A stretch of DNA of 62,074 nt from Flavobacteriales bacterium. Its GTDB lineage: Bacteria; Bacteroidota; Bacteroidia; Flavobacteriales; UJ101. The stretch's first letter is position 1; each line of letters starts with the position of its first letter. Location of the stretch: the NCBI GenBank assembly GCA_047971445.1, contig JBKDZS010000097.1, forward strand, positions 1 to 62,074, in the 5' to 3' direction. The translations under genes and the position numbers were made by a program. Positions 46,311 to 52,472 of the stretch are shown one piece after another. The notes under the pieces were generated by a model. That model was not told the origin of the DNA, did not search any database, and saw only the letters and a program-made list of their open reading frames with translations.

Positions 46311-46562
46311 ATGCCTATAAAAAGTTATTTAGCGTATCCTCATCCCAATCAAAAGGAAACTCTTGAGAAAGCTTTAAATAAACTGGAGAACTGTGAGATT
46401 ATCCCCTCTAAATCCCATGATATCATTATTATCGTAACAGACACTCTTTCTGAATCAGATGATGAAGAATTAGAAAAAAAGATTTATGCAATAAAAAGTC
46501 TACGGTTACTAACAATCGTGGCAGGATTTAATACTGAAAACAAAGAAAAACAAACTATATAA
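46311..46562 (+). CDS. napD: NapD-like chaperone
   Basis: About 83 aa (MPIKSY..., IIIVTD) directly upstream of napA; size and position typical. Confidence 0.65.
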
Positions 46563-46564
46563 TA

Positions 46565-48910
46565 ATGTTCGAAAAGAAAACAAATAGACGAGAGTTTTTA
46601 AAGAAAATGGCTACTATGTCTGCTATGACTGCTGCAGCCGCTCTCGTTCCCGGAATTATTTTTGCTGAAGAACAAAATGCAAATTTACCTTCAGGTAATA
46701 TTAATTGGACAAAGGCGCCTTGTAGGTTTTGTGGAACAGGTTGTGGAATTTTAGTAGGAGAACAAAACGGAAAAGCTGTCGGCGTAAAAGGAGATCCTAA
46801 TTGTGAAGTAAATAAAGGACTTTTATGTGTTAAAGGATACCATCAAACTATGTGTATTGATGCAAAAGATCGTTTCACCAAAGCTTTGGTAAAGAAAAAC
46901 GGTGTAATGGTCGAAACACCTCTAGAGGAGGCTTTAGACTTAGTCGCTTCCAAAATGAAGGAAACTATAGAAACTCATGGAAAAGATTCTGTTTCTATGT
47001 TTACCTCAGGACAATCTACTATTCCAGAAGGGTATGTTGCTTCAAAATTAATGAAAGGAGCTATTGGTACGAATAATTTAGATTGTAATGCTAGACTTTG
47101 TATGGCTAGTGCTGTAACTGGCTTTCTAACCTCCTTTGGAGCTGATGAACCTATGGGATGTTACGAGGATATGGATCATGCTGATGTTATCGTTACCTGG
47201 GGTAACAATATGGCAGAAATGCACCCTGTTTTATTTTCAAGACTCTTAGATCAAAAACAAAAACGTAACTTACTAATTATCGATTTTGCAACTAGAAAAA
47301 CACGGTCTAGTATTGCTTCTGATAAATCCATTATGTTTGAGCCTCAAACTGATTTAGCCGTAGCTAATGCTATTGCTTATGAAATCGTTAAAAATGGGTG
47401 GGTAGACAATCGTTTTGTAGAAGAACACTGTAACTTTAATAAAGGAAAAACAAATATCGGTTACGGTACTGAAGATGGTTTCAAATTCAAAGATAAAGCT
47501 GAAAACATCTCTTTTGATGACTATAAAAAATTCCTAGAGGATTATACCCCAGAAAAAGTATCTAAATTATCTGGAGTTTCTGTAAAAGACACTAAATATT
47601 TGGCCTCTCTTTATGGTAATCCTAATAAAAAAGTGACCTCTTTTTGGTGCATGGGAACAAACCAACATACTCGAGGTACTTGGATGAATAATTTAATTTA
47701 CAACATTCACCTATTAACAGGTAAAATTTCTTCTCCTGGAAACAGTCCTTTTTCTTTAACAGGTCAACCTAGTGCTTGTGGTACAGCTCGTGAAGTAGGT
47801 ACCTTTACTCATAAGTTACCTAAAGGGGTTGTTACGAATGAAGCACACAGAAAGAAGGCAGCTGAAATTTGGAAAGTTCCTGTAGAAAACATCCCTTCTA
47901 AACCAACTTATCATGCCACAGAAATGTTCCGTGCTTTAGATAGAGGGGATATTAAATTTATGTGGATTCAGGCTACAAACCCATTGGTTTCATTACCTAA
48001 CCTACGTCGTTTTAGAGCTGGAGCTAAAAAAGATGGACGTTTCATCGTAGTTTCAGAAGTATTCCCTACTCCAACTACTGATGTAGCAGATGTTATTTTA
48101 CCTTCTGCATGGCATATTGAAAAAAGTGGTATGTATGGAAACTCCGAACGAAGAACACAACATTGGGATAAAATAGTTGAAGCCCCAGGTGATGCAACTC
48201 CAGATGCTTGGATGTTTATTGAAGTAGCAAAACGAATGGGATACGGTAAACTATTTCCCTACTCAAAAGAAAATCATCATGAAGAAATCTATAATGAATA
48301 CCGCCAATTCCATGCTGGAAAAAAGCATAACATGGCTCCTTTAGATGTACTAAAACGAGAATCAGGTGTTGTTTGGCCATTTATAGAAGATGAAAAAAAC
48401 CCTGCAGGAGGAAAGTCAACTTTATGGCGTTACAATGCCAAATATGACCCTGCATGTGATAATGGAAAAGATTTCCATTTTTATGGAAAAAAAGACGGAA
48501 AAGCAATCATATGGCAAAGACCATACGAGGCTCCTGCTGAGTCACCTGATCAAGAATATCCTTTCTGGCTAAATACAGGGCGTGTCGTTGAGCACTGGCA
48601 TACAGGTTCTATGACAAGACGTATTCCTATATTACATCGAGCTGTTCCAAATGCTTATGTAGAAATACACCCTGATGACGCTAAAAAAATAGGTGTCGTG
48701 GATGGAAGCCCTGTTAAAGTGACTTCAAGAAGAGGCTCTATGACGTTACCTGCAGCTATTGATCAAAGAGGTATGCCTACAAAAGGGCAAGTTTTTGTCC
48801 CTTTCTTTGATGAAAATATGCTAATTAATGATGTTACATTAGATGCCTTTTGTCCTATTTCAAAAGAACCGGACTTTAAAAAATGTGCCGTTAAAATTGA
48901 AAAAGTATAA
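46565..48910 (+). CDS. napA: Periplasmic nitrate reductase catalytic subunit
   Basis: Tat [14 protein letters not shown]...C FS0 motif; NARLCMASA Mo-ligand Cys; [38 protein letters not shown]. Confidence 0.9.
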
Positions 48911-48916
48911 TGCTCT

Positions 48917-50231: not shown

Positions 50232-51255
50232 AATTAAGGAAAACATGTTTAAAAATAAAAAATCGATTCCTGATTCAATTGATCTAACAAAAGAAGCTTC
50301 ACAAAATCTTGAAGAAACCAAATTAGATCGTGCCTTAAATCAGACTGTAGATCGAAGAAATGCAATTAAGGGACTTACTGCAGGGCTCCTAGCAGGAACG
50401 GGTTTTGCCGCAACATCATGTAACCCTATGTCTAGCGATAAAGAAAAAGAAGCCTCAGGACTAAAATGGCAAGAATATTTTCAAAAAAACTACCGTATTA
50501 TGTCTCCTGAGGAAAAAAACGAAACGGTAAAACGCTTAGAAAGAAGCTACGAGTTACAACATAATGTAAAAATTAGTGTTTCAGATGCAGAACCCTTAGA
50601 TAATGTACTTTACGGTTATGCCTTTAATATTTCTAAATGCCAAGGATATATGGATTGTATTGATGCATGTATTAAAGAAAACAATTTAGATCGTAAATCT
50701 GACATGCAGTACATTAGAATTCATGAACAACAAAACGGCTCTATGGATTTTAGCAATGCAGATGACAACTACTATCATATGGTTCCTGCAGAAGGGAATT
50801 TCTATATGGGGACACAATGTTTTCATTGTGAAAACCCTCCATGTGTAGATGTCTGTCCTGTAAAAGCTACTTGGAAAGAAAAAGACGGAATTGTTGTTGT
50901 AGACTACAACTGGTGTATTGGATGCCGTTATTGTATGGCTGCTTGTCCTTATGACGGAAGACGTTTTAATTGGTCTACACCTGAAATTCCTTCTGAAGAA
51001 TTAAATAAAGAACAACACTATTTAGGAAATCGTCCTAGAATGAAAGGAGTTATGGAAAAATGTACTTTTTGCATTCAACGTTCTCGTAAGGGGCAATTAC
51101 CTGCTTGTGCCGACGCTTGTCCTACTGGAGCTCGTGTTTTTGGAAATTTATTAGATCCTAAAAGTGAAATTCGATGGGTTTTGGAACATAAAAAAGTATT
51201 TCGTTTAAAAGAAGATTTAGGTACTGAGCCTAAGTTTTGGTATTATATGGACTAA
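50218..51255 (+). CDS. NrfC/DsrO-like polyferredoxin, predicted Tat lipoprotein (start may be 50245)
   Basis: DRRNAIKG...FAATS-C; four Cys groups; GT.PK..Y C-terminus. Confidence 0.88.
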   Translation: MKNIKIKENMFKNKKSIPDSIDLTKEASQNLEETKLDRALNQTVDRRNAIKGLTAGLLAGTGFAATSCNPMSSDKEKEASGLKWQEYFQKNYRIMSPEEKNETVKRLERSYELQHNVKISVSDAEPLDNVLYGYAFNISKCQGYMDCIDACIKENNLDRKSDMQYIRIHEQQNGSMDFSNADDNYYHMVPAEGNFYMGTQCFHCENPPCVDVCPVKATWKEKDGIVVVDYNWCIGCRYCMAACPYDGRRFNWSTPEIPSEELNKEQHYLGNRPRMKGVMEKCTFCIQRSRKGQLPACADACPTGARVFGNLLDPKSEIRWVLEHKKVFRLKEDLGTEPKFWYYMD

Positions 51256-51266
51256 AAATAGTAATT

Positions 51267-52472
51267 ATGACATTAGTAAATTTTTTTAAAGACGCATTTC
51301 AAACTGCTATTATTGGTAGCAAGCGTTATAATATATGGATGGCTGTTCTTACTTTTTTTATGTTAGTAGGAGCTTATGCCTACTCCATTCAATTAGATGA
51401 AGGATTAGCTGTAACAGGAATGCACGATCGTGTGAGTTGGGGTTTATATATCTCTAACTTTACCTTCTTAGTAGGCTTAGCAGCTGCTGCTGTTATGCTT
51501 GTGTTACCCGCTTATGTATTCAAAGATCTTGATTTCAAACAAGCTGTATTAATTGGTGAGGGACTAGCTGTAGCCGCGTTATGCATGTGCCTAGCCTTTG
51601 TTATAGCTGATTTAGGAGGACCGGGAAGAGCTTGGCATTTAATTCCAATAATCGGATTATTCAATTGGCCTGACTCTATGTTATCATGGGATGTACTGGT
51701 TTTAAATGGTTATTTATTTCTTAACTTAACTATTCCTTTTTACATCCTCTACATGCATTATCAAGGAAAAGAACCTAGTAAGAATTTTTATCTCCCAGGA
51801 GTGTTTTTATCTATTATTTGGGCTATTGGAATCCATATGGTAACAGCTTTTTTATATGCTGGATTACCTTCTAAGCCTTTTTGGAACACTTCTTTATTAG
51901 GCCCTAAGTTTTTGGCTTCAGCCTTTGCTGCGGGTCCTGCTATGATTATTATCGTATTAGCTATGGTTCGTAAATTCACAAACTTTAAGATTCATAATAC
52001 AACTTTAGATAAAATATCTTTAATCGTAACTGTTGCGGCACAAATTAACCTCGTGATGTTAATCTCCGAATTGTTTAAAGAATTTTATTTTCCAACACAC
52101 CATGGTATCAGTGCTCAATACTTATATTTTGGGTTAGATGGAAAAGATGGTTTAGTTCCATGGGTATGGACTGCTGTAGTTATGAATGTTTTTGCAACAG
52201 TAGCTTTAACCATTAATCGTTTTATAAAATCTAGAAACTTACTTTATATATCATGTTTGGTTCTTTTTGTTGGAATATGGATTGAAAAAGGAATGGGATT
52301 AATTATCCCTGGATTCCTACCTGGTCCATACGGAGTAATCAAAGAATATACACCTACTATGATTGAACTTCTAGTTACGATTGGAATTTGGTCTATGGGT
52401 GCTTTTATTTTCTCTGTTTTAGCAAAAGTCGCCATCAATATCGAATTAGGAAAATTACGTTTTAAGAAATAA
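51267..52472 (+). CDS. NrfD/PsrC/DsrP-family integral membrane quinol oxidoreductase subunit
   Basis: TGM.D.VSWGLYI.NF.F.VG, DLG.P.R, SMLSWD, H.VTA.L, W.EK; about ten TM helices. Confidence 0.9.
   Translation: MTLVNFFKDAFQTAIIGSKRYNIWMAVLTFFMLVGAYAYSIQLDEGLAVTGMHDRVSWGLYISNFTFLVGLAAAAVMLVLPAYVFKDLDFKQAVLIGEGLAVAALCMCLAFVIADLGGPGRAWHLIPIIGLFNWPDSMLSWDVLVLNGYLFLNLTIPFYILYMHYQGKEPSKNFYLPGVFLSIIWAIGIHMVTAFLYAGLPSKPFWNTSLLGPKFLASAFAAGPAMIIIVLAMVRKFTNFKIHNTTLDKISLIVTVAAQINLVMLISELFKEFYFPTHHGISAQYLYFGLDGKDGLVPWVWTAVVMNVFATVALTINRFIKSRNLLYISCLVLFVGIWIEKGMGLIIPGFLPGPYGVIKEYTPTMIELLVTIGIWSMGAFIFSVLAKVAINIELGKLRFKK

Follow-up and report, generated by a model that had tools for sequence, protein, structure and literature searches.

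Organization of the locus

The window, a 62,074-nucleotide stretch of a Flavobacteriales genome (contig JBKDZS010000097.1), carries six open reading frames on the + strand between positions 46311 and 52472. ORF reading combined with Pfam and NCBIfam models assigns them to a NapD-like protein, NapA, a double-NapB cytochrome, a lipoprotein cytochrome, an iron-sulfur (Fe-S) protein and an NrfD-family membrane protein. Intergenic gaps of 2, 6 and 4 nt occupy the first three junctions, and the last two junctions are overlaps of 14 and 19 nt. The features of the locus are as follows.

39144..46007, − strand: divergent Moco cluster comprising moaA, moaC/B, moaE, moeB, mobA, hemerythrin-PAS, ModE-like HTH and moeA (NCBIfam; Pfam for 43468–44427)
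46077..46088, no strand assigned: FNR/CRP-like palindrome TGATTCAAATCA, 5' of napD, candidate regulator site
46192..46203, no strand assigned: second FNR/CRP-like palindrome TGACATTAATCA, 119 nt before the napD-like start
46311..46562, + strand: napD-like, 83 aa, candidate Tat-proofreading chaperone for NapA
46565..48910, + strand: napA, 781 aa, Mo-bisMGD catalytic subunit with twin-arginine signal RREFLKK
48917..49609, + strand: tetrahaem "double NapB", 230 aa, four CXXCH motifs, strongly hydrophobic N-terminal helix (signal or anchor)
49614..50231, + strand: tetrahaem lipoprotein cytochrome c, 205 aa, four CXXCH motifs, lipobox Cys17
50218..51255, + strand: Tat-exported iron-sulfur protein of NrfC/PsrB/DsrO type, 345 aa
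51237..52472, + strand: NrfD/PsrC-family membrane subunit of DsrP type, 411 aa when read from TTG 51237, with ATG 51267 (401 aa) the probable start
52494..52536, + strand: intrinsic-terminator-like hairpin and U run, closing the operon

The initial annotation had reported these six genes and a terminator behind them, and both points are borne out: every ORF lies where it was placed, and folding recovers a hairpin at 52494–52529 (dG −13.9 kcal/mol, z −4.64; none of 200 shuffles equally stable) with a U run after it, which a consensus scan did not pick up. The napD-like frame is also readable from 46266, and its relatives align from residue 16, corresponding to ATG 46311. For the NrfD-like protein, the true start is likely ATG 51267 because relatives have a stop in the preceding region; with this start, its junction with the Fe-S gene becomes an 11-nt spacer rather than a 19-nt overlap.

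The NapD-like protein and the catalytic subunit

The NapD-like protein of the window falls under the Pfam NapD cut-off (E 0.0023–0.0036; 18 bits vs 28), and PF03927 is matched at E ≤ 0.01 by 35 of 39 NapD-like orthologues (best 1.3e-8). In the surveyed loci, its gene always lies directly 5' of napA.

NapA passes the NCBIfam model NF010055 (946.9 bits, cut-off 904) and scores slightly below the cut-off of TIGR01706 (908.7 bits vs 930.55). Its top PDB matches are of the NapAB type, led by 3ML1_A at 763.8 bits and followed by 2NYA and 1OGY; the monomeric NapA of D. desulfuricans scores 595 bits. The predicted molybdenum ligand C179, located within the motif NAR(L/H)CMASA, aligns with Cys152 of 3ML1_A, and all 76 sequences compared keep C53, C56, C60, C88 and C179. 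By sequence, the catalytic subunit is a genuine NapAB-type NapA with a matching molybdenum-ligand cysteine. No further nitrate-reductase-like enzyme turned up in the genome; the other match is an NAD-type formate dehydrogenase.

The two tetrahaem cytochromes

The double-NapB cytochrome matches Pfam NapB at 47.4 bits (cut-off 25.1) through its N-terminal half, and its two halves align with each other by BLASTP at 35% identity (E = 1e-7). When the PDB is searched with a profile built from 45 orthologues, the leading matches are all NapB chains (1OGY_B at 1.7e-5, 1JNI_A and 3ML1_B). Four CXXCH motifs and the histidines H96, H131, H176 and H201 are invariant in 78 of 78 sequences, and residues 4–22 have a hydropathy of 2.85.

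The lipoprotein cytochrome carries exactly four CXXCH motifs in all 78 orthologues and the lipobox Cys17 in 99% of them. Four additional invariant histidines, H97, H104, H156 and H179, imply four bis-His haems. Matches to NrfB and NrfH models are weak and sub-threshold, and PDB searches, including one with a 65-sequence profile, returned no significant relative (best E 0.011). This cytochrome is proposed to link the Fe-S subunit to the NapB-like cytochrome.

The iron-sulfur protein and the membrane subunit

The Fe-S protein carries the twin-arginine motif DRRNAIK and reaches 201.2 bits against NCBIfam DsrO (cut-off 200) and 154 bits against QrcC (cut-off 400); Pfam Fer4_11 is also matched. Profile searches identify ArrB (6CZ7_B), PsrB (2VPW_B) and the C-terminal part of ActB as its PDB relatives. 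Fifteen cysteines are invariant, and the first motif contains only three (C141-x5-C147-x3-C151), a pattern that points to one 3Fe-4S and three 4Fe-4S clusters.

The NrfD-like protein contains about 10 hydrophobic segments and matches Pfam NrfD at 115.2 bits (cut-off 25.8) and NCBIfam DsrP at 405.8 bits (cut-off 350); public database records name the last two genes DsrO and DsrP. Residues D125, S147 and K351 align with His139, Ser164 and Arg395 of ActC (6F0K_C), positions involved in quinone handling and gating, which correspond to Asp106, Ser124 and Lys329 in D. vulgaris DsrP (PMC8076601). The quinone-site Asp and Ser and the gate Lys are invariant in 67 of 67 sequences, and the subunit is proposed to be the site of menaquinol oxidation.

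Genomic context and candidate regulation

The divergent Moco cluster supplies bis-MGD for NapA. Of 76 loci, 27 have moeA directly upstream in divergent orientation, 37 the ModE-like gene and 23 mobA; a gene for a Crp/Fnr-family regulator follows 3' of the operon in 23 of the 76 surveyed loci, the window not being among them. Neighbouring genes in the window and the surveyed loci are consistent with nitrate respiration; they comprise the Moco cluster and the Crp/Fnr regulator, as well as nrfHA together with ccsBA, globin/ScdA and a transporter of the ABC type for nitrate. The pattern TGA[TC]N4[AG]TCA occurs within 300 nt 5' of napD in 29 of 44 loci, compared with 39 of 860 random 300-nt windows from the same loci; this enrichment is treated as a lead only, because the pattern was picked after viewing the window. 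The genome additionally encodes a true alternative complex III (ACIII; ActC 872.7 bits to 6BTM_C) and NrfH, and the organism therefore has additional quinol-to-periplasm routes.

Absence of canonical quinol dehydrogenases and conservation of the unit

As the initial annotation had claimed, napC, napG and napH are missing from the operon. In the whole genome (91% complete), the only NapC/NirT-family gene is nrfH, adjoining nrfA on a different contig; NapG has no match, NapH has none above cut-off, and a tblastn search with the NapG/F-like ferredoxin of another Bacteroidota nap locus, the query used for NapF in place of a dedicated NapF model, found nothing. Seven operon-bearing relatives have neither NapG nor an above-cut-off NapH. 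The NapC/NirT family is represented solely by nrfH beside nrfA in three operon-bearing genomes, including the window's own, and is absent from five, two of which are 100% complete; these two complete carriers thus have neither a NapC-family gene nor NapG.

A neighbourhood survey of a contig collection, of the kind called for at the outset, yields at least 573 loci; of the best 80, 76 have the six genes in identical order. Two of the four exceptions lack only a NapD match (one at a contig edge), one is a 2.8-kb contig and one is decayed. Moreover, all six genes are kept in order in all 11 other genomes of the order sample that carry this NrfD type (5 of 5 NapA-bearing relatives, then 2/2 and 4/4), and they are inseparable in every complete locus examined. 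Because gene order is kept across families, the layout is not due to chance. At locus L042, where napA is deleted, both cytochrome genes are gone and nrfC is broken by N-terminal loss and a frame break. The six-gene nap layout is common in Bacteroidota and mislabelled in databases.

Within the order sample of 401 genomes, the operon occurs in 12, including the window's own. This patchiness, together with the sub-cut-off scores of NapA against TIGR01706 and of the NapD-like protein against Pfam, counts against reading the locus as a functional nap operon.

Comparison with known systems

Canonical Nap systems are encoded as napEDABC, in which NapAB works with NapC, as napAGHBFLD with NapGH, or as napFDAGHBC in E. 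coli. These operon names are quoted in part in PMC6697039. The window operon shares with them a NapD-like chaperone gene, a NapA that is Tat-exported and of the heterodimeric NapAB type, and a NapB-type cytochrome that is the likely direct donor. It differs in lacking NapC, NapG and NapH, in having a NapB duplicated to four haems with a hydrophobic N-terminus, and in adding a tetrahaem lipoprotein, a four-cluster Fe-S protein and a 10-helix NrfD-family subunit. In four other Bacteroidota nap loci that were fetched, the NapA-like catalytic subunit is 41–45% identical to that of the window and the NrfCD module is absent. Two have the order tetrahaem-napA-napD-Fer4-Fer4_5 (napMADGH-like; one by Pfam, the second mirroring its ORF layout), and the other two have napA followed by a NapC/NirT-like tetrahaem cytochrome.

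By analogy, the module corresponds, on the Nap side, to NrfBCD, the input module of E. coli nitrite reductase, in which electrons pass from NrfD through NrfC and NrfB to NrfA (Table 1, PMC8076601). Both combine a cofactor-less NrfD quinol site, a periplasmic four-cluster protein and a multihaem relay with a soluble periplasmic nitrogen-cycle reductase. In the window, however, the chain would end in the molybdoenzyme NapA, the tetrahaem lipoprotein (24 bits to NrfB models, cut-off 167) and double NapB would serve as relay, and the membrane subunit is a 10-helix protein of DsrP type rather than an 8-helix NrfD.

The Fe-S and membrane subunits also resemble DsrJOP of DsrMKJOP in passing the NCBIfam DsrO and DsrP cut-offs and in sharing the gate Lys of D. 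vulgaris DsrP, whereas DsrM, DsrK, the trihaem DsrJ and dsrA are missing and the partner is NapAB. With ACIII and QrcABCD, the module shares the triad of multihaem cytochrome, NrfC-like Fe-S protein and 10-helix NrfD-like subunit, and with QrcC probably a single 3Fe-4S cluster (PMC8076601). Unlike them, it has neither a molybdopterin-like ActB1/QrcB domain nor a second NrfD-like subunit; its NrfD-like protein scores 46.5 bits against ActC (872.7 for the real ActC of the genome), and the QrcC and QrcD models remain far under their cut-offs.

The nearest system in print, as far as the accessible text of PMC13047784 (2026) describes it, is an orphan dsrOhPh-tetrahaem locus found in cable bacteria and in some Desulfobulbales and Gamma- and Betaproteobacteria, in which a tetrahaem cytochrome with four His/His haems joins DsrO and DsrP homologues in a unit apart from Dsr. 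Compared by this description, the unit in the window lacks a TMH1 gene. Because the unit sits inside a nap operon, it has a concrete acceptor, unlike the orphan locus in that text.

Proposed electron path and alternative interpretations

The locus probably encodes a working periplasmic nitrate reductase, in an operon type specific to Bacteroidota, that is fed by a cytochrome/Fe-S/NrfD module. Gene content, the absence of canonical partners and the conserved six-gene unit together give good genomic support to a putative wiring from quinol through NrfD, the Fe-S protein and eight haems to NapA, along which the triad would thus replace NapC or NapGH. From the gene arrangement, we infer that the NrfCD and cytochrome module is the electron input to NapA. 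The DsrP-like NrfD-family subunit would oxidise menaquinol at a periplasm-side site and pass electrons to the Tat-exported four-cluster Fe-S protein, which would reduce the tetrahaem lipoprotein; they would then reach the membrane-tethered double-NapB tetrahaem cytochrome and finally the 4Fe-4S cluster and Mo-bisMGD of NapA, where nitrate would be converted to nitrite. The NapD-like protein would act as chaperone for Tat export of NapA, and NrfHA, encoded elsewhere in the genome, could take nitrite onward to ammonium. The order of the carriers, their assembly into a physical complex and the quinol species are assigned tentatively; the quinone of the order Flavobacteriales we take to be menaquinone, and it is gene linkage that suggests a physical link between the membrane module and NapAB.

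Alternatively, the triad could be a general quinol:periplasmic-cytochrome oxidoreductase serving Nrf, Nor, Nos and Nir and merely co-transcribed with napAB, with NapAB fed equally by ACIII or a soluble cytochrome c. This is unlikely, although it is the most probable of the alternatives. The genome does encode ACIII, in Campylobacter Nap is fed by Qcr (PMC6195509), and some carriers are reported to have nrfHA, nor- and nos-type functions. Furthermore, the available portion of PMC13047784 places the similar orphan locus in cable bacteria and some Proteobacteria, leaves any Nap linkage unstated, and proposes it as a generic conduit out of the quinone pool into the periplasm. The Bacteroidota loci examined, however, place this NrfD type solely in the nap operon (76 of the 80 best of at least 573; 11 of 11), the duplicated NapB-like cytochrome is co-conserved with the lipoprotein cytochrome, and the decay of L042 shows that the module was not retained there for other uses.

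Less probable still is a different reaction of the NapA-like enzyme: either its substrate would be another oxyanion, for example chlorate, selenate or tellurate, or it would work backwards, as an oxidase that delivers electrons to the quinone pool via a Qrc-like module. The TIGR01706 shortfall would fit this, as would the ability of Qrc, an NrfCD module, to run towards quinone reduction (PMC13059093); nevertheless, the molybdenum-ligand Cys and flanking NapA motifs align closely with C. necator NapA, the NF010055 cut-off is passed, the neighbouring genes belong to nitrate, nitrite and NO metabolism, and carriers are described, in the sources as available, with nitrate-to-nitrite phenotypes. 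It is very improbable that the last two genes encode the DsrO and DsrP subunits of the sulfite-reduction complex DsrMKJOP, or the anchor of a polysulfide reductase: they pass the NCBIfam cut-offs for those families and bear these names in public records, but the operon has no dsrM, dsrK or dsrJ, dsrA has no above-cut-off match in the genome or in five operon-bearing relatives, and NapA is the operon's sole molybdoenzyme, with no PsrA-type subunit adjacent.

For the favoured assignment as a nitrate reductase operon, the initial suggestion of an undescribed system stands in part: a literature search, whose coverage excluded the NrfD-family survey of Duarte et al. 2021, found no description of the six-gene nap/NrfCD layout, whereas the related orphan dsrOhPh-tetrahaem module is already in print (PMC13047784, accessible text). 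In excerpts of PMC5219744 and PMC5561996, cultured Flavobacteriaceae annotated with "NapAB" only reduce nitrate to nitrite; Lutibacter profundi reduces nitrate yet does not grow anaerobically on it (PMC5219744, excerpt), which, assuming that the strain has this operon type, argues against a strongly energy-conserving role. The accompanying remark that the lineage is usually regarded as aerobic was overstated, since many Flavobacteriaceae are routinely described as positive for reducing nitrate to nitrite (PMC7763822, PMC5219744 and PMC5561996, in the parts available).

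Organization of the operon and its genomic surroundings

Analysis of the window by ORF listing and family scans recovers all six forward-strand genes proposed in the initial annotation, arranged as napD-like, napA, a double napB, a tetrahaem lipoprotein cytochrome, a DsrO-like Fe-S protein and a DsrP-like, NrfD-family membrane protein. Divergent from napD lies a Moco set comprising moeA, a ModE-like HTH gene, a hemerythrin-PAS gene, mobA, moeB, moaE, moaC/B and moaA, and this neighbourhood fits a bis-MGD enzyme.

Window 43468–44427, minus strand: hemerythrin and PAS_10 protein of 319 aa, inside the Moco cluster
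Window 44447–44791: ModE-like HTH gene, adjoining the hemerythrin-PAS gene
Window 46266/46311–52472, plus strand: six-gene operon

The hemerythrin-PAS_10 protein may serve as an O2/NO or metal sensor. Across 76 loci carrying the operon, the neighbours include a Crp/Fnr regulator (23 loci), globin (13), nitrate ABC transporter genes (12–14), nrfA, ccsBA and ScdA (8 each) and nrfH (6), a repertoire that fits low-oxygen nitrate respiration with NO stress.

NapA and NapD

The 781-aa NapA carries a twin-arginine signal (RREFLKK), the 4Fe-4S Cys motif and the Mo-ligand Cys, with NapB-type and NapD partners encoded alongside, and is predicted to be a NapAB-type periplasmic nitrate reductase. It exceeds the cut-off of the NCBIfam equivalog NF010055 (946.9 versus 904 bits) and falls slightly below that of the older model TIGR01706 (908.7 versus 930.55). 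Its nearest PDB chains belong to heterodimeric NapAB, namely 3ML1_A, 2NYA_A and 1OGY_A (763.8, 757.1 and 733.3 bits), with the monomeric D. desulfuricans NapA at 595 in the same comparison. Specifically, residue alignment with 3ML1_A retains the 4Fe-4S motif and long identical stretches, and places C179 on Cys152 within NAR(L/H)CMASA, so that the Mo-ligand Cys is kept; NapA is the shorter of the two mainly through one absent surface segment. All 76 sequences compared conserve C53, C56, C60 and C88 of the N-terminal 4Fe-4S motif, together with C179. For NapD, PF03927 is matched by 35 of 39 orthologues, the window copy taken alone being sub-threshold. Indirect evidence for nitrate-to-nitrite activity comes from nitrate reduction phenotypes of Flavobacteriaceae annotated with NapAB (PMC5561996, PMC5219744 and PMC7763822).

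As a query against its own genome, NapA finds itself and one NAD-type formate dehydrogenase. The alpha subunit of the latter (904 aa; TIGR01591, 777 bits), the genome's only other NapA-like match, is encoded on contig C76 (locus L108, 25–7784), after the flavoprotein and Fe-S genes of succinate dehydrogenase/fumarate reductase and a NuoF-like gene, and before fdhD.

Two tetrahaem cytochromes

The third gene encodes a 230-aa cytochrome with four CXXCH motifs whose N-terminal half resembles NapB (Pfam NapB, 47.4 bits; N-terminal half against 1OGY_B, E 7.9e-5). In a search with a profile of 45 sequences, three NapB structures rank first, and the two halves align to one another at E 1e-7; the earlier description of this protein as a double NapB is thereby borne out. 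All 78 orthologous sequences retain the four CXXCH motifs and four further His, in a pattern repeated twice.

The fourth gene encodes a 205-aa lipoprotein. Here, too, all 78 sequences keep four CXXCH motifs and four additional His, and 99% have the lipobox Cys. It has no significant PDB relative, the profile search included. Longer, fused relatives at E<=1e-10 were not found, which is weak evidence, and two apparent fusions in fetched loci, an octahaem protein (L030) and a cytochrome-Fe-S protein (L076), were rejected as artefacts of tblastn matches extended through a stop codon. In a protein atlas, look-alike clusters of the lipoprotein (scores 0.88–0.95) fall most commonly in Methylomirabilota, Gemmatimonadota, Myxococcota, Planctomycetota and Verrucomicrobiota. 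These look-alikes hint that the module formed by the lipoprotein cytochrome, the Fe-S protein and the membrane protein may reach past Bacteroidota.

Fe-S and membrane subunits

The fifth gene encodes a 345-aa protein with a Tat signal, a four-cluster ferredoxin of the NrfC/PsrB/ArrB/ActB-C type that passes the NCBIfam DsrO cut-off (201.2 versus 200). Fifteen Cys are invariant or nearly so (>=99%) in 76 sequences, and the first motif holds only three Cys; the pattern suggests one 3Fe-4S cluster and three of the 4Fe-4S type, as listed for QrcC (PMC8076601).

The last protein is a member of the NrfD family in which a hydropathy scan shows about ten hydrophobic segments, and it exceeds the NCBIfam DsrP cut-off (405.8 versus 350). 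It has the features expected of an NrfCD pair: a Pfam NrfD match over cut-off, a helix count that by hydropathy alone fits the expected 8–10, conserved residues at the quinone-pocket Ser, TMH2 acid/His and mid-membrane Arg/Lys positions, and an adjacent Tat-exported four-cluster protein. Specifically, D125, S147 and K351 align to ActC His139, Ser164 and Arg395 in 6F0K, and none of the three varies among 67 sequences. Calisto and Pereira assign these ActC positions to quinol protonation, quinone contact and gating, and in D. vulgaris DsrP the corresponding residues are Asp, Ser and Lys (PMC8076601).

Search for the textbook quinol dehydrogenases

In textbook accounts, NapC or NapGH supplies Nap with electrons and the system conserves no energy. 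The operon contains no napC, napG or napH, as the initial annotation states, and in genome-wide searches nrfH is the only NapC/NirT-family hit. In its own genome, an assembly of 1.63 Mb in 151 contigs with 91% completeness, and in two operon-bearing relatives (G001 and G003), the sole NapC/NirT member is nrfH beside nrfA, which in the own genome lies on another contig. The family was not found in five further carriers (G031, G029, G013, G329 and G389), two of which are 100% complete. Among the eight genomes formed by the own genome and these seven relatives, NapG (TIGR00397) is found in none, and NapH (TIGR02163) exceeds its cut-off in none, the best scores being 66–70 bits (top 69.8) against 213, in ORFs of 527–535 aa. 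Moreover, tblastn of the own genome with NapC-like, NapG/F-like and NapH-like proteins from other Bacteroidota nap loci returns one weak match at 19% identity. By these searches, neither canonical input is found in the operon or in its 91%-complete genome.

Contig C51 of the same genome encodes the genuine ActC of an alternative complex III (locus L107, 1294–2688; 872.7 bits to 6BTM_C), which gives the organism NrfD-type quinol modules of two kinds.

Conservation and distribution

The same six genes occur in the same order in all five relatives with an orthologous NapA (67–92% identity). A pattern scan with the NrfD-like alignment as query, one genome per species, matched at least 599 stretches, of which at least 573 are confirmed relatives. 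All six genes stand in order in 76 of the best 80 of these loci; the exceptions are two loci lacking only the NapD match (one at a contig edge), one 2.8-kb contig and one decayed locus. Among the matches listed, named records cover many Flavobacteriaceae genera, and also Cyclobacteriaceae, Cytophagales, Lewinellaceae and one Ignavibacteria MAG.

When the order is sampled evenly, the NrfD type is present in 12 of 401 genomes, the own genome included, and all 11 others carry the full operon. In the phylum sample, a NapA-like gene at E<=1e-120 occurs in 12 of 401 genomes; three are of this type and nine are merely 41–45% identical. Together, the scan and the samples show that the trait is patchy but the six-gene unit rigid.

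Four of the nine divergent-NapA loci were fetched, with Pfam applied to 24 of their 47 ORFs, and none contains the module. Two have a napMADGH-like layout (a 119-aa tetrahaem protein, napA, napD, Fer4 and Fer4_5), identified by Pfam in one and mirrored by the ORF layout of the other, while the remaining two have napA followed by a 242–314-aa NapC/NirT-like tetrahaem protein. These alternative wirings, and the decayed locus, are located as follows.

L100, 7829–12193: other Bacteroidota Nap wiring
L102, 7069–10352: other Bacteroidota Nap wiring
L103, 8172–11205: other Bacteroidota Nap wiring
L042, 7828–11191: decayed nap locus of Tenacibaculum finnmarkense strain TNO010

In the decayed locus, a frame break accompanies truncation of NapA after about residue 275, residues 276–781 being lost; neither cytochrome gene remains, the Fe-S gene lacks its first 59 codons, and napD and nrfD are intact. 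A species table gives the nitrate reduction entry of T. finnmarkense as '- or +' (PMC12617846), with which the decay in TNO010 fits in a suggestive way only.

Proposed electron transfer and energetics

The best-supported reading, which we consider probable and which agrees with the wiring in the initial annotation, is a chain from menaquinol through the NrfD-like subunit, the Fe-S protein, the lipoprotein tetrahaem and the double NapB to NapA. Menaquinol would be oxidised at the NrfD-like subunit, with electrons entering the periplasmic Fe-S protein; this protein would pass them to the lipoprotein tetrahaem and next to the double NapB, which would deliver them to NapA. The chain is parsimonious because the quinone site is intact, the Fe-S protein provides a periplasmic wire, eight bis-His haems follow and the enzyme is of the NapAB type, and because several carriers offer no other quinol dehydrogenase. 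The two cytochromes are placed in this order because NapB is the known direct donor to NapA. In addition, the periplasmic parts other than NapA appear membrane-tethered, through a lipobox or a hydrophobic N-terminus, and such tethering fits a putative membrane-bound supercomplex.

The drop from menaquinol to nitrate is about 0.5 V, which NapC-type systems waste. A more speculative proposal, which we hold to be possible and rather unlikely, is that the DsrOP-like module lets Nap conserve energy: the 10-helix subunit would couple its oxidation of quinol to proton release or pumping across the membrane and so exploit this drop. The same proposal would make the orphan DsrOhPh-tetrahaem and DsrO-homologue clades general couplers of quinol to periplasmic reductases, Nap being the first client recognised. 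The gate Lys and channel-type residues are kept in the 10-helix subunit. For alternative complex III, proton pumping by NrfD-type subunits during quinol oxidation has not been shown experimentally, according to part of PMC13059093. The operon offers a tractable system for asking whether these subunits pump protons on quinol oxidation.

Relation to known systems

The nearest match by description is the dsrOhPh-tetrahaem locus of cable bacteria, which part of PMC13047784 describes as a cytochrome with four His/His haems, a DsrO homologue and a DsrP homologue, in a clade near reductive DsrP that is present also in genomes without sulfur metabolism; compared at this level, its architecture and haem ligation match those of the nap-linked module. 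DsrO-homologue clades of unclear function beside NrfD genes also appear in part of Neukirchen et al. 2023 (PMC10504309). The nap-embedded module may provide a concrete acceptor and role for a module class left functionless in those portions of the two papers.

Among working systems, the nearest counterpart is NrfBCD, through which E. coli NrfA receives its electrons. It differs in that NrfB is pentahaem, whereas the operon cytochrome is tetrahaem and reaches 24.2 bits on the NrfB model (cut-off 166.6), and in that nrfA lies outside the operon, with nrfH on its separate contig. Alternative complex III is a poor fit: the membrane subunit reaches only 46.5 bits to 6F0K_C, and the Fe-S protein has only 345 aa, in contrast to ActB with its molybdopterin-like domain. 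Membership in DsrMKJOP was rejected, for although the Fe-S and membrane proteins pass the DsrO and DsrP cut-offs, the operon has no DsrM, DsrK or trihaem DsrJ, and dsrA over cut-off is found neither in the own genome nor in five operon-bearing relatives.

Collectively, the operon is a variant assembled from known parts (Nrf, Dsr, Qrc and ACIII) that is widespread, systematically mislabelled and undescribed in the literature searched. No published description of Nap linked to an NrfCD/DsrOP-type module was found, with the NrfD survey of Duarte et al. 2021 and Sparacino-Watkins et al. 2014 outside coverage, as was supplementary material of PMC13047784 (Table S3; figures S13–S15 and S18–S19) and PMC10504309 (trees) that may already place the Bacteroidota proteins. 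The NrfD-family review of Calisto and Pereira 2021 contains 'Nap' and 'nitrate reductase' 0 times (PMC8076601), and flavobacterial genome papers, in the portions covered, mention 'NapAB' only (PMC5561996, PMC5219744).

Public records from Tenacibaculum, Lutibacter, Seonamhaeicola, Urechidicola and others name the membrane-module proteins as DsrO/DsrP-type, with 'sulfate reduction electron transfer complex DsrMKJOP subunit DsrP' or 'polysulfide reductase NrfD' in marine Flavobacteriaceae. This DsrO/DsrP naming of nap-linked proteins (window 50218–52472; P0006, P0034, P0052 and others) is likely a systematic misannotation, and it can inflate sulfur-cycle gene counts. Surveys that demand napC/napGH, or that score napAB alone, misread the nitrate respiration of abundant marine heterotrophs. 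With at least 573 loci, one genome per species, the module appears to be a third, widespread Nap input beside NapC and NapGH.

Operon boundaries and RNA features

A hairpin followed by a U run closes the operon (-13.9 kcal/mol, z -4.64); it is missed by the consensus terminator scan and visible on folding. Upstream of napD, 29 of 44 loci have a TGA[TC]N4[AG]TCA box, compared with 39 of 860 control windows; the pattern was picked after viewing the window, and this candidate regulatory site is offered as a lead only. A Moco riboswitch or other RNA was sought with Rfam, whose thresholds are reached in the window by six tRNAs only. Elsewhere in the window, a 1245-aa ORF at 9527–13264 (minus strand) has no NCBIfam family at E<=1e-10. 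The tRNA genes form two clusters of three on the plus strand (13413–13673 and 21001–21250), the second followed by ftsZ (21809–23584, minus strand) and next by a run of minus-strand ORFs.
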